Part shown: positions 15,157 to 45,114 of the stretch, one piece after another | How positions within the stretch are numbered: the stretch's first letter is position 1 | Layout: each line of letters begins with the position of its first letter | IMG/VR virus record: IMGVR_UViG_3300049215_000227 | Location: 103,998-167,997 of that record | Length of the DNA: 64,000 nucleotides | Origin: a virus | Lineage: Duplodnaviria > Heunggongvirae > Uroviricota > Caudoviricetes | Direction: 5' to 3' (one strand) | Translations under genes and position numbers: made by a program | The notes under the pieces: generated by a model | The model's database searches: none | Seen by the model: only the letters and a program-made list of their open reading frames with translations | Told to the model about the DNA's origin: nothing

Positions 15157-15213
15157 AACCTAATTTTACCAGAGTCTAGGGTTAGGGCCCAAACCGGGAA
15201 GTACAATGACTTC

Positions 15214-16647: not shown

Positions 16648-16674
16648 TCTTATATCATGCTGGGAGAAATCCGC

Positions 16675-17706
16675 ATGAAAAAGATTATGTTCTTCTTAGT
16701 TGTGCTTCTTGTTGCTTGTCCTCGAGCCATGTCAGATTCGTCTAAGGAGTGGCCGTGCAACAGGTTCATCAAGAACTGGGGCATCTGCAACACTAACAGG
16801 GTGCAGAGTGACATCCACGCTGTAGAGTCGTGGAAGCTTACCCGTCCCAGCAAGAAGGTTGTTGTGGCTGTCATCGACACGGGCGTGTCTGAGGGTCATA
16901 GAGACCTCGCGAGTACCATCTGGATTGATCAGGATGAGCTTAAGCGGCATCGTACTGTGTATGGATGGAACTTCGTTACAGATCAACCTAACCCGTTAGA
17001 CGATCACGGACACGGCACCCACATTGCTGGCATCATCGCTGCTGACTATGACTCAAAGACTGGGGTCTCTGGTGTAGCGCCAGGTGTTCAGATCATGTCC
17101 GTCAAGTACTATTCAGACGCGAATCCTGGGTCTGTCAACCTGCGCAACACGATCAAAGCTATCAACTACGCCGTAGAGCACGGCGCGCAAATCATCAACT
17201 ATAGCGGAGGTGGACCTGAGTTCAACGAGGACGAGTATTTGGCCCTTAAAAAGGCAGAATCTAAGGGAATATTGGTTGTGGCTGCAGCTGGCAACGAGCA
17301 TCAGGATGTGGACTTAGTGGAAAACTACTACTACCCGTCTGCGTATCGTCTCTCTAACATCATCTCGGTCGCAGCAATCGACATCAATAACAACCTGTTG
17401 CCGTCGTCCAACTACGGAAAATCTAGGGTAGATATTGCTGCGCCCGGAGAAAACATCTACAGCACGCTGCCCGGTCAGAGGTTCGGATATATGAGTGGAA
17501 CTTCACAGGCAACAGCCTTTGTTACAGGTGTCGCTGCTCTACTTAAGTCTTGCAACTCGCGACTTAGTCCAACTCAAATTAAGTCGATCATCCTTGAGTC
17601 TGCATACAAGATTCCGCAGATGAGCGACAGAGTTGCCACTGGAGGAAGGGTTGACGCATATCGCGCGTTGAAGCTTGCTCACGATCGCCACATGTGCGTG
17701 AGGTAA
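16675..17706 (+). CDS. secreted subtilisin-like serine protease (S8)
   Basis: Signal peptide MKKIMFFLVVLLVA. Catalytic triad motifs VAVIDTGV (Asp), HGHGTHIAGIIAA (His), GTSQATAFVTG (Ser). Confidence 0.75.
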   Translation: MKKIMFFLVVLLVACPRAMSDSSKEWPCNRFIKNWGICNTNRVQSDIHAVESWKLTRPSKKVVVAVIDTGVSEGHRDLASTIWIDQDELKRHRTVYGWNFVTDQPNPLDDHGHGTHIAGIIAADYDSKTGVSGVAPGVQIMSVKYYSDANPGSVNLRNTIKAINYAVEHGAQIINYSGGGPEFNEDEYLALKKAESKGILVVAAAGNEHQDVDLVENYYYPSAYRLSNIISVAAIDINNNLLPSSNYGKSRVDIAAPGENIYSTLPGQRFGYMSGTSQATAFVTGVAALLKSCNSRLSPTQIKSIILESAYKIPQMSDRVATGGRVDAYRALKLAHDRHMCVR

Positions 17707-17752: not shown

Positions 17753-18457
17753 ATGTTAATTGAAGCTGTGCGCAAGGTGTTTCGAGTTTTAACGTTACTC
17801 TCAACCTGCGTTTTCATGGTGGTGGGACTAGCGACTTGCGCGACGACTTTAATCCCTTACAAAGGGGTTTCCAGTATCCAGATCGAGCCAAATCTTCCTA
17901 AGCTGGAACTTGCTGACAAGATTGATCCAGTCGGAGCAACCGTCAGGCTGTATAAGAACGGTCAGTTCATATGCAGCGGCGTGGTCATCGGCAAAAACTA
18001 CCTCTTAACTGCTTCTCACTGCATGGTTGACGAAGATTTAGTGATGAAGAAGGATAAGTTTACTGTGAGCAACGCCTCCGGCGAGATAATTGCTTTAGGT
18101 AAGCCAGCAGGAGTAAACACCAGAATGGATTGGGGTTTGCTAGAAGGTAACTTCTCCGCGTTTCCTGCTGCGCCTCTCGTTACAACTAGAATCCCTCAAG
18201 GTGAGGTTGCTGCGTGCGGATACCCTCAGGGTTCTCACGACCTCATGTGCTCTCCATTAGTTACAGTCATCAACGACACGTTCTTCATCAAGTGCCAAGG
18301 AGTTATCTTTCCTGGCATGAGTGGTGGACCAGTGTTTGACGCTCAAGGAAACGTGGTTGGACTCAACGTTGCCGTCTACGGAATAGATGAGCACGGCGGA
18401 TCGCAGATCACCCCTACACTAGCGATCCTCGCCAACTTCGGCATTGGACCGAACTAA
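17753..18457 (+). CDS. trypsin-like (S1) serine protease, membrane-anchored
   Basis: N-terminal transmembrane helix, LTASHC (His), GMSGGPVFD (Ser). Confidence 0.65.
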   Translation: MLIEAVRKVFRVLTLLSTCVFMVVGLATCATTLIPYKGVSSIQIEPNLPKLELADKIDPVGATVRLYKNGQFICSGVVIGKNYLLTASHCMVDEDLVMKKDKFTVSNASGEIIALGKPAGVNTRMDWGLLEGNFSAFPAAPLVTTRIPQGEVAACGYPQGSHDLMCSPLVTVINDTFFIKCQGVIFPGMSGGPVFDAQGNVVGLNVAVYGIDEHGGSQITPTLAILANFGIGPN

Positions 18458-21800: not shown

Positions 21801-22122
21801 TCCAGATCACATTAGCAAGCGTGGAGTTCCCTATTGGTGGGCTCCAGAGTGGACTAGAGCTACGAACTCTACCGGCTCATCTTACGGCAAGATCAAGGCA
21901 ATCCGCGAGAAGGGTTGCAGCCACACCAACAAGAAGCTCTGCCATTGTGAAGACACTGTGAATCTTTACATGGTGTCTAAAGACGGCAATCTCACGTACA
22001 TTCAAGGTTCCATTCAGCAAGAGTTCAAGGACTGGCATGCCGACAGGCAGATCGACTACATTTTACTAGGCGAGACTCCTGAGAGTGCGTCTGACCTTAT
22101 CATCAACGAGACGGAGGAGTGA
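21763..22122 (+). CDS. hypothetical protein
   Basis: 119 aa. Confidence 0.4.
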   Translation: MSKKNPVQRPLRDPDHISKRGVPYWWAPEWTRATNSTGSSYGKIKAIREKGCSHTNKKLCHCEDTVNLYMVSKDGNLTYIQGSIQQEFKDWHADRQIDYILLGETPESASDLIINETEE

Positions 22123-22565
22123 TGAGTTTAGAGAGAAAGAAAGAGATTCAGAAGAGAATGGCAGAGCTTCAGCAGGAGTTCGCTACCCTCAACAACGAGA
22201 AGAAAACTATCGAGATTGAGGAGCAAGCGGTTGCAGCTCGCGCCAAGTATGCCGACTACAAGTTCAAGGTCGGTCTGTACGGCTACAAGCTGTACGAAGA
22301 GAGCGAGATCAAGGAAGTCTCGGACAGCGATCGTGAGGACGCTAAGATCGGCTCAAGCGGTCTTGCTTATTCCGGAGCGGATAGCAAGGACGGCTTCTGC
22401 TACATCCTTCTCAAGAACAGGGAAGACCACTCGCGCGTGAAGCGCGTGCTCGTTCTGCTCGAAGCAGCCCACCAGCTTGCTAACGAGAAGGAGCGAGACA
22501 AAGAGAAATACATCAAGATCCTTTTAGGAGAAACTAATGGCGAAGATCCGGTTCAAGGGAACTAA
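22119..22565 (+). CDS. coiled-coil protein
   Basis: 148 aa, with heptad-like sequence at the N-terminus. Confidence 0.45.
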   Translation: MMSLERKKEIQKRMAELQQEFATLNNEKKTIEIEEQAVAARAKYADYKFKVGLYGYKLYEESEIKEVSDSDREDAKIGSSGLAYSGADSKDGFCYILLKNREDHSRVKRVLVLLEAAHQLANEKERDKEKYIKILLGETNGEDPVQGN

Positions 22566-22755
22566 CGTTCACAGCTCGGTAAGTCACGTCACGTTCGTGG
22601 CGGACTACTGCCCCAACACGTTCGAGGTGAACGGGGTACAAGCTGAACATAGCGGTCATGAATTGCCTCCAACAGAAGTCTGGATGGAGAACGCTCTCAG
22701 TCACGCGCGTGACTTGATGAGGAGAAAAGTCGAATGCCAATCAAGGGAGTCTTAA
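22537..22755 (+). CDS. hypothetical protein
   Basis: 72 aa. Confidence 0.35.
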   Translation: MAKIRFKGTNVHSSVSHVTFVADYCPNTFEVNGVQAEHSGHELPPTEVWMENALSHARDLMRRKVECQSRES

Positions 22756-23939
22756 ACAAAGCCCGTGTACCAGTCAAGATCTGGTCTGACATTTCCACTG
22801 TGGAAAGCGCTGCGTTGGATCAGCTCACCAACACAGCAAACTTGCCATTCGTCTTTAAGCACGTTGCGGCCATGCCAGACGTGCATCTCGGCAAGGGAGC
22901 AACTGTTGGATCTGTTATTGCTACTAAAGGTGCTATCTGTCCGGCAGCCGTCGGAGTTGATATCGGCTGCGGGATGGCAGCAGTACGTACCGACTTGGAC
23001 CCAAACGTCGTCCGCGACAAGATCACAGCAATCCGACTCTCGATTGAAAGGTCAATACCAGTCGGTCACGAAGGCAATAATAAGCTTACAAAGTCCGTCG
23101 AGCAGTGGAAGCTCTGGCAAGACTGGCAAAACCTAACCGTTATTGGTCACAACTCTTCAGACACAGCCGACATGTACAAGCGCGCTCGATCGCAGCTTGG
23201 CTCGTTGGGTGGAGGCAATCACTTCATTGAGATCTGCCTTGATACTCAGGACAGAGTGTGGGTGATGCTGCATTCTGGCTCCCGCAACGTGGGTAAGGTT
23301 GTCGCTGAGCGCCACATCGATAAAGCTAAGGACCTCATGAAGACAATGTTCATCAGTCTTCCTGACCCTGACCTAGCGTACTTTGCTCAGGGAACCCAAG
23401 ACTTCCAGAACTATCTGGCTGATCTTGAGTGGTGCCAGGAGTATGCTGCTCAGAACCGCAGGGAGATGATGCAGCGCGTTCTTAAGGATCTCAGCTACGC
23501 CGTGTACGGCGAGGACGGTCAGATCAACACTGATGTCAAGGTTAACTGCCACCACAACTACGTATCGAGGGAAGCCCACTATGGAGAAAACGTCCTCGTC
23601 ACAAGAAAGGGTGCTGTCAGAGCAAGAGAAGGAGATCTTAGTATTATCCCTGGTTCCATGGGTACTCGCTCTTACATCGTACGGGGACTTGGCAACCAGG
23701 ATTCGTTTTGCTCGTGCAGTCACGGTGCCGGCCGCGCAATGTCTCGTGGCGAGGCTAAGCGTACTTTCACTCTCAAGGATCTCGAAGAGCAAACTCGAGG
23801 GGTCGAATGCAGAAAGGACGAGGGAGTGCTTGACGAGATACCAGGAGCTTACAAGCCGATTGATCAGGTTATGGCAAACCAGACGGACCTCGTTGAAGTC
23901 CTTCATGAGCTACGACAGATAATGTGTATCAAGGGATGA
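22734..23939 (+). CDS. rtcB: RtcB-family RNA ligase (3'-phosphate/2',3'-cyclic phosphate RNA ligase)
   Basis: 401 aa with GGGNHFIEIC, CHHNY, and metal-binding His residues in RtcB order. The length is typical. Confidence 0.8.
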   Translation: MPIKGVLNKARVPVKIWSDISTVESAALDQLTNTANLPFVFKHVAAMPDVHLGKGATVGSVIATKGAICPAAVGVDIGCGMAAVRTDLDPNVVRDKITAIRLSIERSIPVGHEGNNKLTKSVEQWKLWQDWQNLTVIGHNSSDTADMYKRARSQLGSLGGGNHFIEICLDTQDRVWVMLHSGSRNVGKVVAERHIDKAKDLMKTMFISLPDPDLAYFAQGTQDFQNYLADLEWCQEYAAQNRREMMQRVLKDLSYAVYGEDGQINTDVKVNCHHNYVSREAHYGENVLVTRKGAVRAREGDLSIIPGSMGTRSYIVRGLGNQDSFCSCSHGAGRAMSRGEAKRTFTLKDLEEQTRGVECRKDEGVLDEIPGAYKPIDQVMANQTDLVEVLHELRQIMCIKG

Positions 23940-24075
23940 TATGAGAGATTATCTTCGAGTGTTCCTAATTGGAGTTTTGATCGCCATGGTGCTTGGCTAC
24001 ACCTTGCTCATGGGTCTTGAGATCATGTCAAAGTTTCTGTCTGTAATCATAAGTTATCAAATGTAAGGAGAAAAT

Positions 24076-24288
24076 ATGAGAGCGATTCTTTTCGTAGTGG
24101 TCTTGTTGGGATTGGTCGGTTGTGCTAGCACTCAGGTTACTGAGTACAATCAAGGTTGCCGTGACGGCGTAGCTGATCGCGCCGGCCGCTCGTTCACCAG
24201 TGAAACTGAGTTGAACAACTACTGCGACTTGAAAGACGCGCAGCATCGCCGCAGCGAGCGTATGATCGAAGGACGCAGCCGAAACTAA
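24076..24288 (+). CDS. small lipoprotein
   Basis: MRAILFVVVLLGLVGCAST lipobox. Confidence 0.45.
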   Translation: MRAILFVVVLLGLVGCASTQVTEYNQGCRDGVADRAGRSFTSETELNNYCDLKDAQHRRSERMIEGRSRN

Positions 24289-24701
24289 TGTTTTGGAGAA
24301 AGCCCAAGGAAGTTCCAGTTGAAGTAGAAAAACTAGAACCTGAGCAGCATTTAGAATACGACGAGATGACGTTTGATGTGGGCGTCACCACGGTGCTAGT
24401 TATATTCGACGACAACAGAGAAGTCCATACTAAGATATACGGTGAAGTTGACCAATACGTTGACTATCCCAGTTATGGACGAAAAACTTACAGGGTTAAC
24501 ACTCCATCCATATGGACGTCCGAAGAAAAGTATCGGCATTGGTTGCAGCATACTAAGCCAGACGAGTTTGTTAAGGTTCTCGACGACCCCATGACGCCAG
24601 AGATAGCGTGGTGCGGTAGGATCATCCACCTGGAAAAGGTGGAGACTCAAAAGCATGAGATTAAATACCAAGTTGCTCGCATCGTAGAGGGTAGCAAATG
24701 A
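24288..24701 (+). CDS. hypothetical protein
   Basis: 137 aa. Confidence 0.45.
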   Translation: MFWRKPKEVPVEVEKLEPEQHLEYDEMTFDVGVTTVLVIFDDNREVHTKIYGEVDQYVDYPSYGRKTYRVNTPSIWTSEEKYRHWLQHTKPDEFVKVLDDPMTPEIAWCGRIIHLEKVETQKHEIKYQVARIVEGSK

Positions 24702-25141
24702 TCGTTTACAAACAGGGAGATCTGCTTGCCAATCTTGAAGAGAAGCGTATCGCTCATGGGTGCAACTGCTCAGGCGGATTCGGAAGTGGCTTTGCGAAAC
24801 AAGTGTCTGAGCTTTATCCGAGCGTCCGAGAAGCCTACTTGCATAGGTTTAATACTAGAGGGTGGAAGCTCGGAGAGGTACAGATTCTGGGCGTCGGTGA
24901 CGGTTCAGGAAGAGAGATTGCTAACTGTGCTACCCAGCAGCGCTACGGTAAGCCAGATGAAGGGCCTTACGTCTCTTATCCTGCTATTAGACAAGTTATC
25001 CGTGACCTCTCCAACTCCTGGCCGGGTGGTTTTGCCATTCCCAAGATTGGAGCAGGTCTCGCTGGAGGTAACTGGGAAATCATTGAGCGAATTATTCAAG
25101 AGGAGTCAGGATCAGTAGAAGTTAGAGTGTACATCCTATGA
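24698..25141 (+). CDS. macro-domain protein (OARD1/TARG1-like ADP-ribose hydrolase)
   Basis: IVYKQGDLLANLEEKRIAHGCNCSGGFGSGFAKQV matches the TARG1-type macro N-terminus (GDLF...HC.S.D...G.GIA). Confidence 0.55.
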   Translation: MIVYKQGDLLANLEEKRIAHGCNCSGGFGSGFAKQVSELYPSVREAYLHRFNTRGWKLGEVQILGVGDGSGREIANCATQQRYGKPDEGPYVSYPAIRQVIRDLSNSWPGGFAIPKIGAGLAGGNWEIIERIIQEESGSVEVRVYIL

Positions 25142-25270
25142 AACTCTGGATTCTGATCTTATCTGTTCTCGTCGCGGGATGCACAGTGGTTCGCATCAAC
25201 GTCATGACTTATTGTCACACGAAGGACGGCTATTACCTGATAGACGACCCTCACTGTCAGGAGAAGAAGG

Positions 25271-26101
25271 ATGATTAGAGTAGTAACTGATGACGGTTTG
25301 GCGTACAACATCGTCCCCACTATGTTTCCAGATGGCACATCTCAAGTCTGGAAGCTGCCAGAAGACCTTCTGAAGTCGCGCATCCTGGAAGTTACCTGGA
25401 ACTTTGAGAGTGAGCGCGAGATCATTGACCTACTCTCGCTTAGAAAGATTCAGCGCGGTCAATGGTATCTCCACATCCCTTTCCTCCCTTACGGACGCCA
25501 AGACAAAGAAGCGAGCAACACGTCGACGTTCAACCTCAGAGTATTTGCAGACTTAGTTAATCTGCTTGACTGCGCGGAGGTAACCTCAGTTGACTCCCAC
25601 AATCCAGAGGTTACTGGGCAGCTCATCAAGAACTTTACCAACGTCCCAGTGACCGCGCTGCACAAGTTGCTGGTCGATGAGACCCAGCCGGACTACCTCG
25701 TGTATCCTGACTTAGGCGCAAAGAACCGCTACTACACCTCTGACTTCTCCAGCATACCTCGCGTCATCTTCTACAAGGAGCGCGACCAGCTGACCGGTCA
25801 GATCACCGGACACACCCTATCGTACAGAGACGCTCAAGGCATCACCATCCAAGGCGCTGACATGGGCAAGATCGCTAGACCTGGACAGCGCTTCCTAATC
25901 GTTGATGACCTATGCGACGGTGGAGCTACATTCATCAGCATCGCGAGGAAGCTTCGCGAGCAGATTCCCGGCATCGAGATCGACCTGTTCGTGACTCATG
26001 GTGTCTTCAGTAAAGGTCGAGACATCCTTACAACTAACGGAATCAACAGAGTGTATACTACTAACAGCTTAACCAAAAACGGAGATGGATACAAAGTATG
26101 A
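25271..26101 (+). CDS. PRPP-synthetase-family pyrophosphokinase (candidate Adps of NARP1)
   Basis: 276 aa with the PRPP-binding loop FLIVDDLCDGGATF. Lies directly upstream of, and translationally coupled to, the NAMPT-like gene. Confidence 0.65.
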   Translation: MIRVVTDDGLAYNIVPTMFPDGTSQVWKLPEDLLKSRILEVTWNFESEREIIDLLSLRKIQRGQWYLHIPFLPYGRQDKEASNTSTFNLRVFADLVNLLDCAEVTSVDSHNPEVTGQLIKNFTNVPVTALHKLLVDETQPDYLVYPDLGAKNRYYTSDFSSIPRVIFYKERDQLTGQITGHTLSYRDAQGITIQGADMGKIARPGQRFLIVDDLCDGGATFISIARKLREQIPGIEIDLFVTHGVFSKGRDILTTNGINRVYTTNSLTKNGDGYKV

Positions 26102-27564
26102 AGATCAGACCTACGAACCTCAAAGACGGATATAAAACTGACCACCGCCGCCAGTACCCAGAGAACACCTCGCTGGTGTACTCAAACCTGACGGCACGCG
26201 CTTCGCGCGACCCTCGCTACACGCACGTGGTTCCGTTTGGGTTCCAAGCGTTCGTGCAGGAGCTGAAGGATAACTTCGACAAGGAGTTCTTTCAACTGCC
26301 GAAAAGCCAAGCGGTGTCAGCGTACAAGCGCCGTCTGGACACGTACCTAGGTCCTGGTGCAGTCCCTGTCGATCACATCGAAGCTCTCCATGACCTTGGC
26401 TACCTGCCGCTCCACATCAAGGCTCTTCCTGAGGGATCGCTCTGCCCGATCGGCGTTCCGATGTTCACCATCGTGAACACGAATAAGAACTTCTACTGGC
26501 TCACCAACGACCTCGAGACGCTCATCTCCACTGAGACCTGGAAGCCTATCACCAACGCGACGATCGCGTTTGAGTACCGCAAGGTCCTCCAAGGCGCGTG
26601 CATGCGCACCAACCCGGAGATGATCGAGTTCGTTCCTTGGCAAGGACACGACTTCTCCTTCCGCGGCATGGATGGCGTGAGCTCGGCAGCTCGCTCTGGT
26701 GCTGCTCACTTGCTGAGCTTCACCGGCACGGACACGATCCCAGCTATCGACTTCCTCGAGCAATACTACTGTGCGGACGCCGAGAAGGAGCTCATCGGAG
26801 GCTCTGTTCCTGCTACCGAGCACTCGGTCATGTGCATGGGCGGCCAGGAGACTGAGTTAGAGACGTTCAAGCGCCTCATCAACGATGTCTATCCTAGCGG
26901 CATCGTCTCCATCGTCTCCGACACGTGGGACTACTGGGACACGCTCACCAATAAAGCAGCTCTCCTCAAGAACGACATCATGGCCCGCAACGGTAAGGTC
27001 GTATTCCGCCCTGACTCCGGCGATCCCGTAAAGATCGTCTGCGGTGACCCTGATGCTCCCGTCGGTAGTCCGCAGCACAAAGGTTCGATCCAAGTGCTAT
27101 GGGACCTGTTCGGAGGTACGACAACCTCTACCGGTTATAAGCAGCTCGACTCGCATGTTGGCCTCATCTATGGTGACTCCATCACGCTGGAGCGCGCAGA
27201 AGCGATCGTTAACGGACTGGCGGCGAAAGGATTTGCTTCCACCAACGTGGTCTTCGGCATCGGGAGCTTCACCTATCAGTACAACACCCGCGACACGTTC
27301 GGCATGGCCATCAAGGCAACCTACGGTCGCATCGGCGATGCTCCAGTTGATCTCTTCAAGAACCCTAAGACGGACTCAGGAATGAAGAAGTCGGCTAAGG
27401 GATTGCTGCGAGTAAACGCTGACTTCTCGCTCAGTCAGCAGGTCACCCCGGAAGAGGAGAAGCAGGGCTTGTTGCAGACCATCTTCCTCGACGGCAACTT
27501 CGAGAACGTCCAGACGCTTGCTCAGATCAGGGCTCGTCTACTCAGCAACCTGAATGCTAAGTAA
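26098..27564 (+). CDS. nicotinamide phosphoribosyltransferase-family enzyme (NAMPT/NadV-like; candidate Namat)
   Basis: 488 aa, the NAMPT size. Fold-wide similarity (GTDT, SVPATEHS, GIGSFTYQ). The start overlaps the upstream stop (ATGA). Confidence 0.7.
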   Translation: MKIRPTNLKDGYKTDHRRQYPENTSLVYSNLTARASRDPRYTHVVPFGFQAFVQELKDNFDKEFFQLPKSQAVSAYKRRLDTYLGPGAVPVDHIEALHDLGYLPLHIKALPEGSLCPIGVPMFTIVNTNKNFYWLTNDLETLISTETWKPITNATIAFEYRKVLQGACMRTNPEMIEFVPWQGHDFSFRGMDGVSSAARSGAAHLLSFTGTDTIPAIDFLEQYYCADAEKELIGGSVPATEHSVMCMGGQETELETFKRLINDVYPSGIVSIVSDTWDYWDTLTNKAALLKNDIMARNGKVVFRPDSGDPVKIVCGDPDAPVGSPQHKGSIQVLWDLFGGTTTSTGYKQLDSHVGLIYGDSITLERAEAIVNGLAAKGFASTNVVFGIGSFTYQYNTRDTFGMAIKATYGRIGDAPVDLFKNPKTDSGMKKSAKGLLRVNADFSLSQQVTPEEEKQGLLQTIFLDGNFENVQTLAQIRARLLSNLNAK

Positions 27565-27672
27565 GATTCTCGGACTGTTCAAATCTAAGCCGACTGCGGT
27601 TGAATCGTTTGCGATGGATTTGTACGTTCGACTGGATCTGCTTAAGCTGTTGAGAAAGCTGGACATAGCAAA

Positions 27673-27882
27673 ATGTCGAAGACCGTAACAATCAAGATGT
27701 CACGTGAGGATGCTCTTAAGTTTGGGCTCCTCACGTGCGGCAACTGCTATTGGCCACCAAACAATCACTTTGATTTTGGTGATAGGACTTGCGCCCATGA
27801 TTCTGAATGTAAGGGCTACAAAGAGGTTGCTCGCGTTGGCAAGCTGGTAAAACAAAGACGTGGTAAAACCCGGAAGATATAG
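27673..27882 (+). CDS. small Cys-rich protein
   Basis: CGNC...CAHDSEC. Confidence 0.35.
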   Translation: MSKTVTIKMSREDALKFGLLTCGNCYWPPNNHFDFGDRTCAHDSECKGYKEVARVGKLVKQRRGKTRKI

Positions 27883-28093
27883 GCATTACAGAGGCGGCAT
27901 ATACGTGGTTCTATTTACCGCTCAAGACTCGGTAACTGGGGCTCCTGTCGTCGTCTACATGAATGAAACTCATGGAACCTTCTACACGAGGCCAGTGAAG
28001 GAGTTCACCGCTGACGTGATGGTTGATTCTGAAGATGGCGGCATGCCAAGGTTTAAGCTCATAGATGGACATGAGAAAAATTACCCTAGATAA
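27860..28093 (+). CDS. DUF1653-family protein
   Basis: YRHYRGGIYVV...ETHGTFYTRPVKEF matches the DUF1653 consensus. Confidence 0.45.
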   Translation: MVKPGRYRHYRGGIYVVLFTAQDSVTGAPVVVYMNETHGTFYTRPVKEFTADVMVDSEDGGMPRFKLIDGHEKNYPR

Positions 28094-28328
28094 CCATGAC
28101 GTCTTCAGAAAGAGGCATACGCAGACCAACGCGAATGTCTCTTACTGGCACGACGAGTGGAGCTGTGAGGCACAAGTTCATCACCTAGCTGACCTAGTTG
28201 AAGTTGTAGGCAGTAAGAAGTCTAAGGTTAGGAAAAAGAACTTTGGCATCTCTAAGAGGGAAGCCAAGGTATCCAATCGTGACTTAGTCGATATCTGTCG
28301 CGGCTCCATCAACGGAAACTCGCCATGA
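28065..28328 (+). CDS. hypothetical protein
   Basis: 87 aa. Confidence 0.3.
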   Translation: MDMRKITLDNHDVFRKRHTQTNANVSYWHDEWSCEAQVHHLADLVEVVGSKKSKVRKKNFGISKREAKVSNRDLVDICRGSINGNSP

Positions 28329-28609
28329 AGAAGCCCAGGAAGAGAAGGTACTGGGACGACTACATCACGAGCGATCCCGGTGATGGCCTTGAGATAAATC
28401 GCTCGAACGACGCGAGGATGGTATCCAAGCGAAGTACAAGATACTCCATATTCGACGCGGACAATATCGCGGTTGAGTTGGAAGTATCTAAAGGTCGTCG
28501 CTCCTTCAAGAAGGTAAGCGTTCTCGGAGAGGTGCGGAAGGTAAACGCCTCTAAGACCAAGAATTTAAACAAGTATAAAGATCGCATGAATAACAGGAGA
28601 GGATTCTGA
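28325..28609 (+). CDS. hypothetical basic protein
   Basis: 94 aa. Confidence 0.35.
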   Translation: MKKPRKRRYWDDYITSDPGDGLEINRSNDARMVSKRSTRYSIFDADNIAVELEVSKGRRSFKKVSVLGEVRKVNASKTKNLNKYKDRMNNRRGF

Positions 28610-29601
28610 TGGCTGAGAACACCGAAGGCAAGTTCAAGATCAAGAAGATTACCAAGTTCGAAGACCTCGTTGAAGGCCAAGTTCTCGAGCTTCCTGAGTC
28701 CGACCTCTGCTTCCAGAACGAGACCCAGATCGTTCAGATGAAGTACGAGCGCCCTGAGGAAGACAAGAAGTATGAGATCAAGCCTGGAGTCTACACGTTC
28801 GTAGAGACCTCCGCAGGTCTCATCACTCAGAAGGTTGAGATCAAGAAGCGGGTTCTCCTCGAGTCGATCGACAACACCAAGCAGATCCTCAACGAGGCTC
28901 GCACCTTCTTCAACAAGCTTCACGTTTACGAGAAGCTCGGTCGCCCTAAGAAGCGTGGCGTTCTTCTCTATTCCAGCCCTGGCATGGGTAAGACCTCTGC
29001 CATCGAGAAGTTCTGCGGCGATGCCATGGCTGAGGATGCTGGCACGGTCGTAGTTATCTGGCCGACCTCGGACATCGAGGCTGACTCCGTTTGCCGCTTC
29101 CTCACGACTCGCTCTGAGTACACGGCTGAGTGCACCCGCTTGGTCCTCATCATCGAAGACATTGGCGGTGGCGAGCGCGACGGTGACCACGGTCGCATGG
29201 CCGTTGACTCCGGCCTATTGAACCTCCTCGACGGCGTCGGCGTGGTCTTCAAGCTCCCAACCTTCATCGTGGCGACCACCAACCACCCTGAGAATCTGCT
29301 TCAGTCGCTCGCCGATCGTCCTGGTCGCTTTGACCTCATGATGCAGCTCAGTCCTCCCAACCATCAAGAGAAGATTGCTCTCCTCACCTTCATCAGCAAG
29401 CGCGAGCTCAACGATGAGGAGAAGGAAGCGATCGGCATGAAGGGAACTGAGGAGTTCTCCATTGCCCACCTCGAGGAAGTGGCGGTCCGCGCTGAGCTCC
29501 ACGACAAGACTTACCGTCAGGTAATCGAGGAGCTCGTGAACCACTCTAAGAAGTACAAGCGTAACTTCGAGGACAAGCGCAGCCTCGGCCTCGGAATGTA
29601 A
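28609..29601 (+). CDS. AAA+ ATPase
   Basis: Walker A SPGMGKTS and Walker B LVLIIEDIGG. Confidence 0.55.
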   Translation: MAENTEGKFKIKKITKFEDLVEGQVLELPESDLCFQNETQIVQMKYERPEEDKKYEIKPGVYTFVETSAGLITQKVEIKKRVLLESIDNTKQILNEARTFFNKLHVYEKLGRPKKRGVLLYSSPGMGKTSAIEKFCGDAMAEDAGTVVVIWPTSDIEADSVCRFLTTRSEYTAECTRLVLIIEDIGGGERDGDHGRMAVDSGLLNLLDGVGVVFKLPTFIVATTNHPENLLQSLADRPGRFDLMMQLSPPNHQEKIALLTFISKRELNDEEKEAIGMKGTEEFSIAHLEEVAVRAELHDKTYRQVIEELVNHSKKYKRNFEDKRSLGLGM

Positions 29602-29789
29602 TGTGGGACGACTACGAAGGTTGGATTTACCACAATAAAGACGAAGAGCACTGGGAGCGATTTCGAGACAGCAAGATATACATAGTTCATAACTTATTAG
29701 ATTTCTTATTTAAACTAAGAATTATGAAGGATGTAGAAACGCATTACGACGCTGCGGGCTTCGTAGATAGGCACTGGAAACATGAATGA
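29601..29789 (+). CDS. hypothetical protein
   Basis: 62 aa. Confidence 0.3.
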   Translation: MWDDYEGWIYHNKDEEHWERFRDSKIYIVHNLLDFLFKLRIMKDVETHYDAAGFVDRHWKHE

Positions 29790-30237
29790 GCGCAGAAAGA
29801 TTTTCTTCTGGAACGAGCGTGATAAGTACGGCGCCTTCTCCAATTTTCATGAGGGTCCGTATGACATCGACGGCAAGTCGTGGCCGACTACGGAGCATTA
29901 TTTTGCAGCTCAAAAGACCATGGACGAGTCTGAGAGGGAAGCTATTCGGAAGGCGGCAACTCCGCTAGACGCTAAGAGGATGGGCAGAGTCGTTAAGCTT
30001 CGTCCTGACTGGGATAAGGTGAAGTACGACGTCATGCTAACAGCTCTTAGAGCTAAGTTTGGCAGCTCTCAAGAGCTCAAGAAGTTGCTCCTATCTACCG
30101 AAGATGCCCTGGTTTACGAGGACTCACCTTACGACAAGGTGTGGGGAACTGGAGTTCGCGGTGGCGTTGGCTCGGGTCAAAACCTACTAGGTAAAGCTCT
30201 CATGCAGGTGAGAGAGGAGTTGAGGAATCAATGCTGA
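29782..30237 (+). CDS. NADAR-domain protein (YbiA-like)
   Basis: FFWNERDKYGAFSNFHEGPYDIDGKSWPTTEHYFAAQK is the NADAR signature (FSNF...W.T.EHYFQA.K). Confidence 0.6.
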   Translation: MNERRKIFFWNERDKYGAFSNFHEGPYDIDGKSWPTTEHYFAAQKTMDESEREAIRKAATPLDAKRMGRVVKLRPDWDKVKYDVMLTALRAKFGSSQELKKLLLSTEDALVYEDSPYDKVWGTGVRGGVGSGQNLLGKALMQVREELRNQC

Positions 30238-30389
30238 ATCTCGTGCTATCTATCCTTGATATTCTTGGCGCCATCGTGTGCGGCTACTGCGCCTACAAAG
30301 CTTACAAAGACCCTAACACGTACCCTACGTGGTACATGTTTATGGCCGGTTTCTTTTGCTTGTTCAACATCTTTGCAGCCATGTTATAA
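30231..30389 (+). CDS. small membrane protein (52 aa)
   Basis: ATG overlaps the NADAR stop (ATGCTGA). Two hydrophobic helices. Not in the ORF track because it is under 60 aa. Confidence 0.3.
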   Translation: MLNLVLSILDILGAIVCGYCAYKAYKDPNTYPTWYMFMAGFFCLFNIFAAML

Positions 30390-30406
30390 TGAGCTTGGAC
30401 CTGTCC

Positions 30407-30496
30407 GTCGGTTACGGGGCAGAGCCTTATAAGCTCTTTAAGCACTAGATTAGTGTTGCACGAGGGTTCGACTCCCTACAGGTCTACCAACTTTAT
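30407..30496 (+). tRNA. class II tRNA (90 nt, long variable arm), anticodon loop CUUAUAA (UAU)
   Basis: Acceptor GGACCTG/CAGGTCT, A73 with CCA encoded. Anticodon stem AGAGC/GCTCT. Variable-arm hairpin CACTA/TAGTG. T-arm GAGGG-TTCGACT-CCCTA. Isolated from the main array. Confidence 0.4.
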
Positions 30497-30504
30497 GTCC
30501 CAAG

Positions 30505-30728
30505 AACTTTGGCAAACCCTCTTCGAGATCAAGCAGAAAGAAGAGCGCGTTGAGGATGGAGACTTGGGTTCCTACTACAACATCACATATGACTTAGTGA
30601 ACGTTCACAACGATCAGGTTGTTGCGAACTACAGAGACTACGGATACGCGAGGAAACAAGCTAGACGTAGATATAAGAAGCTCGTTCGTCTCATGGAAAA
30701 AACTTTCATGGACGTGGCGGGATGCTGA
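30505..30728 (+). CDS. hypothetical protein
   Basis: ATG at 30505, immediately after the tRNA (MSQELWQTLF...). Confidence 0.35.
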
Positions 30729-30898
30729 CAGCTAGAGGACCGCCCCGCTTGCGGCTCCGTCTGCCAGCATAAAGAGGCGGTAATAGCCTGGGAAAGCCGT
30801 CTTGATGACCAGGTTGTTAGATGTATTGGGTTAGATGGGGGTTGGCGGGGAAACCTCAACAATGAGACTGCTCGCCAACCTATTCCAACCCCTAAAAT

Positions 30899-30912
30899 TC
30901 TGATCGTATAAT
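30899..30912 (+). promoter_or_regulatory. promoter-like motif A (TCTGATCGTATAAT)
   Basis: Copy of motif A, 40 nt upstream of ORF 30954. Confidence 0.45.
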
Positions 30913-30953
30913 CGCGTTGTTCTTCTGCGTCAAAATTTTTAAAGGAGATTTCA

Positions 30954-31301
30954 ATGGCTCATAAAGGTTACACGGTTCCCTACTTCATCAACTTCTTCGA
31001 GAGTATTCCTGACCATCGCTGGACTGAAGGCGAACTTCAGCGTAGCGGCACGGTTCAGAAGTGCGCTCTCGGTCACGCTGCCAGCGACAGTCGTGCGCCT
31101 GCAAACTCGTTTGTTACCAACAACGATGTGAGCAGCTCTCAGCGTGCTCAAGCCCTCATCGAGGTTCTCGGCGGTGATGTTGCTGCCATCAACGACGCTG
31201 ACGGTTCTTACGCTGATCTTGGTCGCACGCCTCGCGGCCGCATTCTCCGCGCTCTCCGCAACGTGAAGCGCACCGGAAACGTTTTCGGAAACCGTGAATA
31301 A
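30954..31301 (+). CDS. hypothetical protein
   Basis: 115 aa. RBS AAGGAGA. Confidence 0.4.
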   Translation: MAHKGYTVPYFINFFESIPDHRWTEGELQRSGTVQKCALGHAASDSRAPANSFVTNNDVSSSQRAQALIEVLGGDVAAINDADGSYADLGRTPRGRILRALRNVKRTGNVFGNRE

Positions 31302-31324
31302 AACTCGAATCTGAAACAATAATT

Positions 31325-31368
31325 GGCCCGCTACAGGAGTTTTCTTGTGGCGGGCTTTCATTTTTGGA
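31325..31368 (+). terminator. rho-independent terminator
   Basis: GCCCGC...GCGGGC hairpin followed by TTTCATTTTT. Confidence 0.5.
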
Positions 31369-31441
31369 GGCGAGAAATGCCGTCAATTAGTGTCAATCCG
31401 CAGCGATATAGTAGTCCCCCTAACCCTCAGAAAGGAAACAG

Positions 31442-32681
31442 TATGGATTTTCGTAAAGTGAAACTCATCTCCCTGCTCATCGCAGGCACGGTGGGCTTGT
31501 TCTTGCTCGTAAGCGTCGGGCGAGGACTTGTTGGAACCAACAACGCAGGTTTTTATCAGATCAAGCAGGCGGCAGTGACCGGAACGATGACCGTCATCGA
31601 CCAACCCGGCTCCTACGCTCGCTTGTTCGCAGACATCCACACGTACCAAATCTCCGACATGCACTACTTCTCCAAGAGCAACTTGGACGGTGGTGGCGGA
31701 GATGAGTCAAGTCCTATCCACGTTCGATTCAACGATGGTGGTACCGCAGACATCAGCGGCGCTATCAAGTATCGCTTGCCAGCAGACGACGCGAAGCGAC
31801 TCAAGATTCATCAAGACTTCAAGTCCTACGAAGCGCTCAAGCACGACTTGATTCGTCAGACCGTATCAGAAGCTATGATGCAGACTGCGACTCTCATGAA
31901 GGCAGAGGAATCGTATTCCACTCGCCGCTCTGAGTTCACGTCGCTCGTGGAAGACCAGATCAAGAACGGCATCTACGATGTTACCGCTCGAGAAGTCAAA
32001 ACCAAGGACGCAGATGGAAATGAGCTCGTGGACCATGAAGTCTTCGTTAAGCGAGACGAGAAGGGTAATCCCGTCATCCGCAAGCCTTCTCCCCTGAATA
32101 CCTACGGCATTGAAGTCGTATCCTTCACCATTAAGGAGCTTGACTTCGATCAGACCATCGAAGCTCTGATCCAGAAGAAGAAGGAAGCTGAGCAGCAGAA
32201 GGTTGTGGCTCGCGCTAACGCTGAGAAAGCTAAGCAAGACGCTATCACCGCTCGCGAGCAAGGTAACGCCAAGATCGCGACTGAGAAAGCTGAGCAAGAT
32301 GTCCAGAAGATCAAGGAAGTTACGATCGCCGAGAAGCAGTTCGAGGTTGCCCAGCTCAAGCGCAAGCAAGCTGAGCAGGATGCCCAAGCTGCCATCACCA
32401 ATGGTAAAGCTGAAGCTGAAGTTAACCGCTTGAAGGTTCAAGCTGGCTTGACTCCGCTCGAGCGCGCTACCATCGAGAAGGAAACTGCCATCGGCGTTGC
32501 TGCAGAGCTCGCTAAGGTGCAGTTCCCAGGCATGATGGTGCTGGGTGGAAGTGGCGGCAGCGCCATGAATCCCTTCGACGCTGTAGGTCTCGAGAGCTTC
32601 ATGCGCATCAGCAGCAAGCTGAGCAAGCAGCACGTCGGTCAGACCGGTAAGAACTCTGGTTCTGCCAACGACGGTGAGTAA
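31442..32681 (+). CDS. SPFH/band-7 (stomatin/HflK-like) membrane protein
   Basis: N-terminal transmembrane helix, an SPFH-like core, and a long Ala/Lys/Glu/Gln coiled coil (QKKKEAEQQKVVARANAEKAKQD...). RBS AAAGGAAAC. Confidence 0.6.
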
Positions 32682-32909: not shown

Positions 32910-33359
32910 ATGACAACGATAAGACGCCGCCTGCTGGTAAGTAGCGCAATATTGGTCTTGATCCTAGCGTTCGCAGCGTCCTGCACGGACAGCGAGCAGC
33001 AAGCCCAGATCGAAAGGCAGAAGCGAATTGAGCAGCAAGAAAAAGACGACGCAGCTAGAGCTAGTGAAGCGGCCAAGAATGCTCAGTCGCAGGGAGGAGC
33101 AGGATCGAGCGATACCAGTCAAGTCGAGCCAGAAGCTTCGCCGACTCCCGATGCTACGCAAGAGCCGGATAAGACGACAAATTACATCTACTTCAATGGG
33201 AACTCTAAAGTTGTCTGCATCTGCAGAAAGAGCTCTGAGTGCGGAATGACCTTCTGGGGTTGCGATGACGGCAAGGTATACGGATGCATGCACAACGCCG
33301 TATATCAGCCGGTCGAAGTGGAAGCAACGAACGACAACACGTCCAACTGCGAGGAATAG
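32910..33359 (+). CDS. lipoprotein
   Basis: LVLILAFAASCTDS lipobox with an acidic/Gln-rich linker. Confidence 0.45.
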   Translation: MTTIRRRLLVSSAILVLILAFAASCTDSEQQAQIERQKRIEQQEKDDAARASEAAKNAQSQGGAGSSDTSQVEPEASPTPDATQEPDKTTNYIYFNGNSKVVCICRKSSECGMTFWGCDDGKVYGCMHNAVYQPVEVEATNDNTSNCEE

Positions 33360-33935
33360 ATGGAAGAGCCGGTACTGGTATTTGACGACGTTCTTAATCA
33401 AGGTCAGCATAAGTTGATCCTTGACGAGTTGCAGAGACGCGACGCGTTCATGCCAGCCGGCTCTCAGTGGACTAGCAAGAGCTACTGGCATCCCCATGAC
33501 GGCAACGTTCTCAAGACTCCTTACACAGTGATGCCGTGCCTGCCAGGAAGCTACTTCATCCGCTACAACGAGCTGCTGCACACCGTGATGAATGACCCGC
33601 GATTCGCTGAAGTTCAGAAACTGTTGAAGGATCTAGAAGTCGACAGAATTGGCGTCTCTGGCTTCGCGTACCCTTCCAACTCCGGATTTGACTGGCATCA
33701 CGATGGAGAAAATTCTCAGCTGGCGCTGGTTTACTACGCCGTTGAGCGCTGGGAACCTTCGTGGGGTGGTGAGCTTCTAGTTGACGGAGGCGACGGCAAG
33801 GGAACATTCGTAGCTGTGCGACCAAATAGATTGGTAATCATCAAGCGCGGAGTCAATCACAAGGTTGCACCGATAAGTTTCAGGGCTGGCGATCAGATGC
33901 GTTGGAGCGTCGCAGGATTCTTCGAGTCCAATTAA
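33360..33935 (+). CDS. 2OG-Fe(II) oxygenase-like protein
   Basis: WHHDGEN (HxD) ... GGELLV ... NHKV (distal His). Confidence 0.45.
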   Translation: MEEPVLVFDDVLNQGQHKLILDELQRRDAFMPAGSQWTSKSYWHPHDGNVLKTPYTVMPCLPGSYFIRYNELLHTVMNDPRFAEVQKLLKDLEVDRIGVSGFAYPSNSGFDWHHDGENSQLALVYYAVERWEPSWGGELLVDGGDGKGTFVAVRPNRLVIIKRGVNHKVAPISFRAGDQMRWSVAGFFESN

Positions 33936-34762
33936 GTAGAAGCTGGATCCTTAGGTTGAGAAGCCTCAGCATTAACTTGCTGGGGCTTTTCTGTTTCTGC
34001 GGGCTTGTCGTCAACGACAACATGCGGATCAGAAGGTTCCTTCACCACGGGATTAAGCTCTAGCTTGGGTACCTTGACCTTGTTGATACGAGCATAAATA
34101 TCAGCGAGTAACTTCTTCATCTCTCCTGCTTCGGGAGCCTTCTTCATGGCCGCTTGACGCATCTTTCTGAGGTTGCCGCGCTTCTTAGGCTCGATGATCT
34201 TGTCAGCCAGCCCTAATGACACTGCTTCACTCGCAGACAGAAACAGGTCTCTCTGCAGCACGTCTACCCAGAAATCTCTCGGCATGCGACTGTTCTTTTC
34301 GTAGATGTCGTAGGCAATAGCCATGAGTCGCTGATTCTCAACTGCGCCGATCTGTATGTCGGTGTGCTTACCTTCATACCAGGAAGATAGTTCGTGGACC
34401 ATCACGGAGGCGTGAGGATATAGGTAGCGCTCGTCGCAAACTGCCATGATCCAGGTGGCTGCCGACATGATGGCTCCACCTCCATAGAACTTAACTTGAC
34501 ATGGGCAACTTAGGATCTCATCGTGGAGTCGAAGCATGGCGTACATGTCACCGCCATAGCTGTTCATATGTATCTCTATGGGTTTTCCAGGCGCATCCAG
34601 AGCCATTCTATGCATGGAACGGATGGCTAGCTCTACCGATGCCTGAGTGAAGTCTCCCTGGTCATCCTGGGACCAATCGATTGGTACCCCGAAGTAGATG
34701 CGTCTGTTTTTTAAGTCGATTCCGTAGATAAGGCTGTCTGTGAGTTCGGATTGGGCCGCCAT
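33932..34762 (-). CDS. ClpP/S49-like serine protease (second copy)
   Basis: IEIHMNSYGGDMYA...GAIMSAATWIM...VMVHEL. Paralogous to 15214..15906. Confidence 0.55.
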   Translation of the reverse strand: MAAQSELTDSLIYGIDLKNRRIYFGVPIDWSQDDQGDFTQASVELAIRSMHRMALDAPGKPIEIHMNSYGGDMYAMLRLHDEILSCPCQVKFYGGGAIMSAATWIMAVCDERYLYPHASVMVHELSSWYEGKHTDIQIGAVENQRLMAIAYDIYEKNSRMPRDFWVDVLQRDLFLSASEAVSLGLADKIIEPKKRGNLRKMRQAAMKKAPEAGEMKKLLADIYARINKVKVPKLELNPVVKEPSDPHVVVDDKPAETEKPQQVNAEASQPKDPAST

Positions 34763-44674: not shown

Positions 44675-45114
44675 TTGGGGAGTTCTATCTAGCTAATCAG
44701 TTGGTCTTGCTAGGCTTCTTCGTGTACGCCTTCTTCAAGGAGGAGTTTGAGCTCACCAAGGATAATCTTGGAGTTGCAGCTGCTCTAATCGCGGGTGGAC
44801 CGCTAGGTTCCTTCGCAATATTCTGCGTCGTCATGCATCAGCACGTCAGCGACCGCGTGCGAAAGAAGTGCGGCGACGCGGTTCATAGGTGGGAAGTAGC
44901 AGCCAGAGCTGACTCCATGAGAAGTCGATGGGACTGGTACAAGAACATGGAGGCTCAAGAGGAGAGGTACAACCTGCTCCGAGAGCACATCAGCATCTTA
45001 ACGGACGCTGAGCTCGAGATGCTCTCCAAGGTTAGCAAGTCGACGTTTGAGATAGAGAAGCCTGTAAGGGACGCCATCTTTGACGAGATACTTCATAGGA
45101 ACATAATGAGATGA
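44671..45114 (+). CDS. membrane protein
   Basis: Two transmembrane helices at the N-terminus. Confidence 0.4.
   Translation: MIGEFYLANQLVLLGFFVYAFFKEEFELTKDNLGVAAALIAGGPLGSFAIFCVVMHQHVSDRVRKKCGDAVHRWEVAARADSMRSRWDWYKNMEAQEERYNLLREHISILTDAELEMLSKVSKSTFEIEKPVRDAIFDEILHRNIMR

Follow-up and report, generated by a model that had tools for sequence, protein, structure and literature searches.

A 64-kb stretch of the uncultivated phage genome IMGVR_UViG_3300049215_000227 carries a dense array of genes that includes several for NAD+ and ADP-ribose (ADPR) metabolism. This stretch, called here the window, is about a third of the 176.5-kb (176,504-bp) genome and is the part covered by the analysis. A macro-domain gene is followed by a gene of the phosphoribosyl pyrophosphate (PRPP) synthetase (Prs) family, by a gene of the nicotinamide phosphoribosyltransferase (Nampt) family and, further downstream, by a gene coding a NADAR-domain protein. 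The coordinates of these four open reading frames (ORFs; Table 1) are identical to those of an initial annotation made from the DNA letters alone, and its four domain assignments hold in profile searches. Segment 24698-27564, which contains the first three genes, is probably a NARP1-AP operon (NAD+ reconstitution pathway 1, NARP1, with its associated phosphatase) of a phage of ~176 kb, the NADAR gene being a separate accessory. The 7-kb region has no near-identical DNA in INPHARED (megablast, 50,697 phage records) and consequently no cultured close relative there.

The Prs-like protein belongs to phrog_619 (E 2.6e-53), the same PHROG as the validated ADP-ribose pyrophosphokinase (Adps) of Vibrio phage Gary. 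It scores 59.8 bits with the Prs model TIGR01251 (cut-off 113), compared to 106, 96.5 and 99.9 bits for the Adps of phages SPbetaL1, FADO and Gary, and 422.7 bits for E. coli Prs. The Pfam Prs and PRT families reach only ~20 bits, under their cut-offs, which is typical of validated Adps too. The window protein also lacks three segments of E. coli Prs that are missing from the validated Adps: the amino-terminal ~20 residues, the carboxyl-terminal ~30-40 residues and the 6-7 residues that follow the His of the HxxQIQGFF segment. Its K169 and R171 correspond to SPbetaL1 K162 and R164, and the K169 column is that of Gary K192. This lysine was the residue mutated in both papers of the Sorek laboratory (SPbetaL1 K162A, Gary K192A). 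Prs has the conserved catalytic lysine as well, whose presence thus suggests competence and not specificity.

In a neighbour-joining tree of 90 sequences, built without bootstrap and with E. coli Prs as sole outgroup, the window protein nests in the Namat-linked clade together with the Adps of SPbetaL1, FADO and Gary, and E. coli Prs stands on a long branch. Both the tree and the TIGR01251 score place the protein within the Adps clade and not with canonical ribose-phosphate pyrophosphokinases, the grouping that would have spoken for a housekeeping enzyme. A Namat (nicotinamide ADP-ribose transferase) homologue lies in the immediate vicinity in 97% of the Adps clade (Osterman et al.). Among 80 IMG/VR loci gathered with an Adps profile, Namat adjoins the Adps homologue in 77 and the remaining three are cut off by contig ends. 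Because of its sub-threshold Prs score, the deletions shared with validated Adps, its position in the Namat-linked clade and the adjoining Namat gene, the Prs-like protein is assigned to Adps, with a predicted ADPR-pyrophosphorylating activity. The Adps stop codon and the Namat start codon share 4 bp (ATGA); the pair was described initially as translationally coupled.

The Nampt-like protein matches NAPRTase (1.3e-36) and NAMPT_N in Pfam, and phrog_448 (3e-189). Its best PDB matches, at 544 bits, are 9w5x and 9w5w, whose sequence is 100% identical to the Namat of SPbetaL1, versus ~200 bits for human and bacterial Nampt. Namat has a selectivity clamp composed of a helix motif, GS-X-phi-X-phi-X-phi-TRD, whose aromatic residues (X 3, 5 and 7) stack on the adenine (Lan et al. 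2026, PMC12774641), and of a beta1-beta2 loop longer than that of Nampt with a stacking Arg, Lys or Tyr, which is Arg40 in SPbetaL1 (PMC12774641). Residues 389-399 of the window protein read GSFTYQYNTRD, as in SPbetaL1, and its Arg37 aligns with R40. Three Nampt-type phage proteins differ at these positions: their clamp loop falls short of that of the window protein by three residues in L011 and L012 and by one in L013, and all three carry G(G/S)G(L/V)..RD at the clamp motif (e.g. GGGLLQMVNRD or GMGGGLLQ..RD). The residues that contact NAD+ are identical to those of SPbetaL1 Namat at 21 of 22 positions, the exception being A362S, common to FADO and Gary Namat. The Nampt-like core is kept as well, with F186, D212, H242 and R304 equivalent to SPbetaL1 F189, D215, H245 and R306, and H242 to Gary H243. 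The protein is assigned to Namat because of its 544-bit match to the Namat structures, its clamp motif and its clamp-loop arginine; ADP-ribose pyrophosphate (ADPR-PP) is predicted to be preferred over PRPP as donor. In all the sequence features that tell Adps and Namat from housekeeping Prs and Nampt, the two proteins are of the former kind, and the proposal that they constitute a NARP1 pair stands.

The arrangement found here, with Adps directly 5' of Namat and overlapping it, is that of the NARP1 of SPbetaL1, FADO and Bas63 (Osterman et al. 2024, bioRxiv 10.1101/2024.02.11.579819). The window shares with SPbetaL1 NARP1 an identical clamp motif, the clamp-loop Arg, the catalytic His and the R306 equivalent of Namat, as well as the catalytic Lys and Arg, the ribose-5-phosphate loop and the below-threshold Prs-model score of Adps. 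Identity to the SPbetaL1 proteins is 54% for Namat and only 31% for Adps. The window Adps and that of the related locus L004 differ from SPbetaL1-type Adps by a 13-aa insertion in the flexible-loop region, which is absent from the related locus L007. SPbetaL1 and FADO are Bacillus phages and Bas63 is a coliphage, while the ~176-kb phage lineage of the window is uncultivated and its NARP1 activity is a prediction.

The same two genes could serve ordinary NAD+ salvage in a NARP2-like manner, with a divergent Prs that makes PRPP, a NadV-type Nampt that converts it to nicotinamide mononucleotide (NMN) and a host or phage NMN adenylyltransferase (NMNAT) that completes the synthesis. The public annotation of the exact proteins, ribose-phosphate pyrophosphokinase and nicotinamide phosphoribosyltransferase, is in line with such a role, Namat is able to form NMN from PRPP in vitro (PMC12774641), and two thirds of the genome lie outside the window. 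The NCBIfam model PRK09198 passes its cut-off on the Nampt-like protein, but it does so also for the crystallised SPbetaL1 Namat and does not discriminate between the two activities. Both elements of the clamp, motif and loop, follow Namat exactly where the Nampt-type phage proteins depart from it, and the Prs-like protein is distant from true Prs in score and in the loss of its two terminal segments. A Pfam scan (E<=1e-3) of the called ORFs of the window, roughly those of 60 aa or more and a few smaller ones, detected no NMNAT, Nudix, NadR or PnuC protein and no CTP_transf_like match, which bears out within the 64 kb the lack of NMNAT noted in the initial annotation. Osterman et al. found no phage with both pathways. 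Altogether, salvage has next to no likelihood as the function of the pair. NARP2 (Nampt plus Nmnat) was rejected by the lack of a CTP_transf_like or Nudix match in the window and by the placement of the enzyme in the Namat clade, and NARP3 by the lack of a PnuC or NadR match in the window.

The product of the macro-domain gene scores 21.3 bits with Pfam Macro, just under the cut-off of 22, and belongs to phrog_335 (2e-34). Its AlphaFold2 model, computed with 36 homologues, has a mean predicted local distance difference test score of 92 and matches macro-domain crystal structures with template modelling (TM) scores of 0.8-0.88 and E-values down to 4e-12 (Foldseek). BT1257, SCO6735, DarG, Poa1p and TARG1 are its neighbours by sequence and fold. 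A functional precedent is provided by Adpp of phage Gary (KNV71_gp137), which takes the phosphate off ADPR-1''-phosphate, a compound generated by the RES-domain defence aRES, and so yields ADPR (Osterman et al. 2026, bioRxiv 10.64898/2026.01.28.702374); its anti-aRES activity is lost in the H24A and N27A mutants (Osterman 2026, Table S4). Gary Adpp belongs to phrog_335 too (1.3e-49) and aligns with the window protein from end to end (E 5e-12). H20 and N23 of the window protein are the equivalents of Gary H24 and N27 and are invariant in the 36 homologues.

The window protein was aligned with TARG1 (sequence verified against PDB 2lgr/4j5q), with AdfM of phage PhiKZ and with the NARP1-associated macro proteins listed in Table S1 of Osterman 2026. 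At four diagnostic columns (His/Asn/Lys/Asp) it reads H/N/Q/A, as do Gary Adpp, the proteins of PaP1 and phiAbaA1, and BT1257. TARG1 reads H/S/K/D and AdfM I/N/K/-. Q80 of the window protein occupies the position of TARG1 K84 and AdfM K78, and A122 that of TARG1 D125, showing that the catalytic Lys of TARG1, DarG and AdfM and the Asp of TARG1 are not present. The equivalence of DarG K80 and TARG1 K84 follows PMC13309987 and general background. The domain sizes of Gary Adpp and of the window protein match (158 and 147 aa). The latter is 38-40% identical to the NARP1-associated macro proteins of Pseudomonas phage PaP1 and Acinetobacter phage phiAbaA1 (Osterman 2026, Table S1). A stretch that reads HQxNCFxxMGxG in the Vibrio and Pseudomonas proteins is HGCNCSGGFGSG in the window protein.

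The macro gene lies 130 nt upstream of Adps, separated from it by a 46-aa ORF whose junctions overlap both neighbours, and is indeed just upstream as described initially. It is within two genes of NARP1, the operational definition of Osterman 2026 and the situation of Gary adpp. A macro gene occupies such a position in 15% of NARP1 operons (Osterman et al. 2026, bioRxiv 10.64898/2026.01.28.702374) and in 16-19 of the 80 IMG/VR loci. Because Q80 and A122 replace the TARG1 Lys and Asp, H20 and N23 are kept, the PHROG is that of Gary Adpp and NARP1 is adjacent, the gene is considered with moderate confidence to code an Adpp-like protein, likely the ADPR-1''-phosphate phosphatase of NARP1-AP and not a de-ADP-ribosylase. 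The initial assignment to the OARD1/TARG1 family is correct for the clade, by sequence and by fold; the removal of ADP-ribose from modified substrates that was attributed to the protein is at odds with its Q80, A122 and H20/N23 residues and with its Adpp PHROG.

An orphan antitoxin-like de-ADP-ribosylase of the AdfM/DarG2 or TARG1 type, acting on phage DNA or proteins and a mere neighbour of NARP1, was weighed as another identity of the macro protein. The macrodomains of TARG1/OARD1, DarG2 and AdfM fall in the same clade in sequence as well as in fold (TM 0.78-0.83), the window protein keeps the Asn of DarG (N22) and AdfM (N23), and the macrodomain of Taq DarG ranks third in Foldseek. Phage macro antitoxins do exist, such as PhiKZ AdfM, a DarG2-like DNA de-ADP-ribosylase whose active site contains N23 and K78 (PMC13309987). 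Matches to DarG models are weak but real (NCBIfam 1.5e-9; PADLOC DarG 6e-14), but Gary Adpp has the same weak DarG match (34.9 bits) and TARG1 as best PDB match, so that these hits do not discriminate. SCO6735, described as a protein de-ADP-ribosylase, is also among the matches, at 4e-11. Unlike TARG1, DarG and AdfM, the window protein has Gln at the catalytic Lys position (K84, K80 and K78, respectively), Ala at TARG1 D125 and no DarT-binding carboxyl-terminal domain. Its His20, a residue needed in Gary Adpp, is Ile in AdfM, and the gene is found directly upstream of the Adps unit in all syntenic relatives. A de-ADP-ribosylase is on these grounds improbable. A phage-borne defence system was also rejected, as there are no partner domains and PADLOC gave only generic DarG-macro, IetA-AAA and PDC-M42C matches.

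The macro protein could alternatively be an ADPR-1''-phosphate phosphatase engaged in RNA repair with RtcB rather than in escape from aRES, like yeast Poa1p, which clears the by-product of tRNA 2'-phosphate removal. RtcB starts the gap-free gene chain that contains NARP1, RtcB lies less than 2 kb from NARP1 in the IMG/VR loci L061 and L090, and links between RNA repair and NAD/ADP-ribose genes were noted by Iyer et al. 2022. Among homologues of known function, Poa1p is nearest to the Adpp family (Osterman 2026), and the window protein matches it at 1.9e-9. The window yielded neither a KptA/Tpt1 nor a 2H phosphoesterase, and the relatives L006 and L007 have macro, Adps and Namat genes without RtcB: the macro gene tracks NARP1 and not RtcB. 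Ligation by RtcB, moreover, is not known to leave a 2'-phosphate. A role in RNA repair is very unlikely.

Three syntenic relative lineages (four loci: L004/L005, L006 and L007, the last from a 176.8-kb contig) share one gene order, in which macro, the lipoprotein ORF, Adps and Namat are followed by DUF1653, two small ORFs and the AAA ATPase, and then by SPFH and ClpP genes. The macro gene is retained immediately upstream of the Adps unit in L004, L006 and L007. The macro protein is 77-80% identical among these relatives and the window, i.e. more conserved than Adps (52-66%). L004/L005 and L007 have NADAR, and L006 lacks it; RtcB occurs in L004/L005 only, not in L006 or L007. Macro and NARP1 are a stable unit because their linkage is kept in all relatives while NADAR and RtcB are not, these being separable accessories in the same array. 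The single module of four genes that was initially proposed is thus retained for macro, Adps and Namat, linked in all three lineages, but not for NADAR, which is missing from L006 and is parted from Namat by DUF1653, the AAA ATPase and small ORFs. A homologue of the macro protein with 82% identity (P0124) is encoded by a 211-kb NCBI contig labelled Sphagnum balticum, probably a phage contig in a moss assembly, which hints at a peat or freshwater habitat of the lineage.

The proposed NARP1-AP operon would act as follows. NAD+ would be cleaved to ADPR and nicotinamide by SIR2, TIR or SEFIR effectors of the host, and Adps would use ATP to convert the ADPR into ADPR-PP. Namat would then couple ADPR-PP with nicotinamide to regenerate NAD+. 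Phosphorolysis of NAD+ by aRES/RES proteins would give ADPR-1''-phosphate, from which the macro protein would remove the phosphate to supply NARP1 with ADPR. All the residues known to be required in Adps, Namat and Adpp are found in the window proteins.

Several observations weigh against this interpretation. Identity between the macro protein and Gary Adpp is only 28%, and the Adpp-like designation rests on four residues together with the gene context. BT1257 (64 bits) scores closer to it than Gary Adpp, and DarG, Poa1p and SCO6735 are about equidistant, all these pairwise scores being similar; the fold search does not separate Poa1p, DarG, TARG1 and BT1257 either. The gene order is macro, 46-aa lipoprotein, Adps, Namat here and Adps, Adpp, Namat in Gary. 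Gene packing between 22.7 and 30.4 kb is so dense that adjacency by itself means little. The negative result for NMNAT covers 64 kb, and ~112 kb of the genome lie beyond them. Assignment of the macro protein by its best hit was rejected, since the validated Gary Adpp itself matches TARG1 (PDB) and DarG (NCBIfam) best.

The fourth protein, NADAR, is recognised by Pfam (6.9e-41) and by TIGR02464 (143.5 bits, cut-off 73.7). Its closest structures are E. coli YbiA (2b3w, 2.2e-36) and Phytophthora PnNADAR (8bau, 1.3e-18). E38 and K45 correspond to the pair E36 and K43 mutated in T4 AdfN, and E112, D117 and W120 to PnNADAR E125, D130 and W133, showing that the active site is intact. The Glu at the PnNADAR E125 position assigns the protein to the YbiA subfamily; T4-like phage NADARs have His there. 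It shares with AdfN (PMC11825919) and YbiA (2b3w) the NADAR fold, the Glu/Lys pair and the E/D/W triad of PnNADAR, in a small stand-alone phage protein. It differs in type from the His-bearing T4-like AdfN, and the AdfN of Bas32 and Bas60 are on other branches. The gene is downstream of Namat on the same strand, as described initially, although 'just downstream' is too loose a term for a distance of 2.2 kb and seven ORFs. The domain assignment is secure and the proposed removal of ADP-ribose plausible.

As an accessory in the co-oriented array, NADAR would most likely hydrolyse N-glycosidic adducts such as DarT1-type ADP-ribosylated guanine (guanine-ADPr), in the manner of AdfN. Three phage AdfN proteins counter DarTG1 (Johannesman et al. 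2025, PMC11825919), and Cihlova et al. saw hydrolysis of guanosine-ADPr in vitro with each of the four NADAR types that they studied. Inside cells, the AdfN of Bas32 and Bas60 neutralised DarT1 while YbiA and T4 gp30.3 did not, and the lack of protection by YbiA, the closest characterised NADAR, would speak against a similar use of the window protein. An AdfN-like anti-DarT1 role is plausible. The protein might instead have no part in defence against DNA ADP-ribosylation, being either a YbiA-like small-molecule N-glycosidase of riboflavin intermediates or a partner of the AAA ATPase encoded just upstream. Besides the proximity to YbiA and its failure against DarT1 in vivo, this would agree with the name of TIGR02464, 'riboflavin biosynthesis intermediates N-glycosidase'. 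The AAA ATPase, the 62-aa ORF and NADAR (28609-30237) succeed one another in the window and in L004/L005; in L007, which has no homologue of the 62-aa ORF, the ATPase adjoins NADAR directly, and in L006 the ATPase and a small ORF are kept and NADAR is missing. A weak match to the candidate defence family PDC-M42C was also obtained. A phage, however, is not known to have an obvious use for the clean-up of riboflavin intermediates. The activity of four NADAR types on guanosine-ADPr (Cihlova et al.), the action of the divergent Bas32 and Bas60 NADARs against DarTG1 and the recurrence of NADAR inside NARP1 operons elsewhere argue against this reading, and the last of these points to an ADPR-related function. 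A non-defence role is accordingly possible but doubtful.

NADAR genes lie within 10 kb of NARP1 in six of the 80 diverse IMG/VR loci. In five of these the gene is co-oriented with the operon and no more than 250 nt away from it, between Adps and Namat or abutting Namat (Table 1). These NADARs are of the Glu type, in a subgroup different from that of the window protein. A rough binomial estimate, in which uniform placement in a 20-kb locus puts a gene within 1 kb with ~12% probability and kinship between loci is ignored, gives p roughly 1e-4 for five of six. The proximity of NADAR to phage NAD+ salvage genes was noted before, and N-glycosidic substrates were speculated on (Iyer et al. 2022); the literature search found no study testing a link between NADAR and NARP1. 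Because the Adpp phosphatase and the RyDEP glycosidase are known to feed ADPR into NARP1, it is a reasonable, if tentative and rather unlikely, hypothesis that NADAR is a third feeder, releasing free ADPR from N-glycosidic adducts for recycling to NAD+ by Adps and Namat. Its substrates may be guanine-ADPr on nucleic acids, His-ADPR or N1- or N7-linked cyclic ADPR signals. No Pfam match to a RyDEP-like RyR-domain glycosidase was found among the small ORFs beside NARP1 in the window.

Table 1. Features of the NARP1 region in the window and NADAR genes within or abutting NARP1 operons of other IMG/VR loci.
Feature	Sequence	Coordinates	Strand	Characteristics
RtcB RNA ligase	window	22734..23939	+	Pfam RtcB 7.3e-132; first gene of the gap-free chain that contains NARP1; given as context, pathway membership not implied
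137-aa ORF	window	24288..24701	+	4-bp overlap with the start of the macro gene
Macro-domain protein, Adpp-like	window	24698..25141	+	147 aa; predicted ADP-ribose-1''-phosphate phosphatase feeding ADPR to NARP1
Predicted lipoprotein	window	25138..25278	+	46 aa; lipobox LVAGC and two further conserved Cys
Adps (ADP-ribose pyrophosphokinase)	window	25271..26101	+	276 aa; predicted ADPR + ATP -> ADPR-PP; contains FLIVDDLCDGGATF
Namat (nicotinamide ADP-ribose transferase)	window	26098..27564	+	488 aa; predicted ADPR-PP + nicotinamide -> NAD+
Intergenic spacer	window	27565..27672	+	108 nt; between the NARP1 chain and the next chain; long imperfect hairpin
DUF1653 protein	window	27860..28093	+	Pfam DUF1653 1.2e-14; 69-74% identity to the L004, L006 and L007 homologues
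Classical AAA ATPase	window	28609..29601	+	Pfam AAA 3.6e-08; 79-84% identical in L004, L006 and L007; just upstream of the NADAR position
NADAR-domain hydrolase, YbiA subfamily (Glu type)	window	29782..30237	+	151 aa; predicted N-glycosidic ADP-ribose hydrolase; candidate AdfN-like anti-DarT1 factor
Terminator-like hairpin	window	31325..31366	+	14-bp stem, 8 G-C pairs, T-rich tail; strong
NADAR	L026	10739-11239		between Adps and Namat
NADAR	L058	11915-12426		between Adps and Namat; split into two ORFs
NADAR	L045	12687-13235		abutting Namat
NADAR	L067	12148-12693		abutting Namat
NADAR	L089	7467-7949		abutting Namat

The genes of the window are nearly all on the + strand and tightly packed. From RtcB (22734) through Namat (27564) each junction is an overlap or a gap of at most 9 nt, and the genes of this chain may be co-transcribed. 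The 137-aa ORF preceding the macro gene has no match in Pfam, PHROG, NCBIfam or PADLOC. The lipoprotein ORF is wedged between the macro and Adps genes, which it overlaps by 4 and 8 nt, and L004, L006 and L007 have homologues of it there too (E 1e-21 to 2e-25), with the lipobox kept. Further small lipoprotein-like ORFs are found at 24076-24288 and 32910-33359.

A second gap-free chain (27673-30389), which holds DUF1653, the AAA ATPase and NADAR, follows after the spacer, the sole sizeable intergenic gap in the array. The spacer folds with a minimum free energy of -38.2 kcal/mol (z -2.49; 4 of 200 shuffled sequences did as well) and has no U-tract. Its length is ~109 nt in L007 and only 10-19 nt in L004 and L006, and two independent transcription blocks split at this gap were dropped as a strong argument for that reason. 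The hairpin at 31325..31366 is the first convincing + strand stop signal 3' of the gene array and the sole convincing terminator in a scan of 22.0-31.5 kb. It lies over the TTG start assigned mechanically to the SPFH gene, whose real start is probably the downstream ATG. Promoter-like sites were fewer than in shuffled sequences, and none lay on the + strand of 22000-31500, by a sigma-70 model that may not apply here. With no + strand promoter and one terminator only, the operon boundaries are therefore not definable.

DUF1653 comes after Namat throughout the syntenic relatives. In L004/L005 and L007 it is the next gene, and in L006 and the window a 69-aa ORF intervenes. No DUF1653 gene was found near NARP1 in the 80 IMG/VR loci. 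The AAA ATPase gives only weak matches to FtsH, PAN, CDC48 and IetA, and its amino-terminal ~100 aa have no family match.

By its gene content, the window is consistent with the non-structural arm of a lytic phage of large size. The large subunit of ribonucleotide reductase is encoded on the minus strand (11672-13498) of the otherwise + array, followed by ThyX (13533-14201, +), and an ATP-dependent DNA ligase is also encoded. Protease genes are unusually numerous for a phage arm. Two code ClpP-like proteins, one a subtilase and one a trypsin-like protein; they lie at 15076-15906, 16657-17706, 17753-18457 and 33932-34762 (the last on the minus strand) and are all syntenic in the relatives. One ClpP-like protein has a weak NfeD-like match and is encoded near the SPFH/Band7 gene (31323-32681). 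Region 39818-63649 codes proteins of the translation-rescue type (peptide deformylase, PTH2 peptidyl-tRNA hydrolase and an RF-1-domain protein), a ParB-like nuclease, a DenV-like glycosylase and two HNH endonucleases. A calcineurin-like phosphoesterase (45111-45893) and a VTC-domain protein (46509-47420) complete the set.

The window is a further example of known systems, and the outcome is mainly a corrected annotation and not new biology. The public names O-acetyl-ADP-ribose deacetylase, ribose-phosphate pyrophosphokinase and nicotinamide phosphoribosyltransferase, given to the macro protein, Adps and Namat, respectively, are misleading. For phage macrodomains the comparison suggests a four-residue rule, in which H/N/Q/A would indicate an Adpp-like, H/S/K/D a TARG1-like and I/N/K an AdfM-like protein. 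NADAR genes embedded in NARP1 operons are a testable extension of the idea of feeder enzymes and the one point that could repay follow-up. NARP1-AP, validated so far only in Vibrio phage Gary, would with this locus extend to a large uncultivated environmental phage lineage of ~176 kb.

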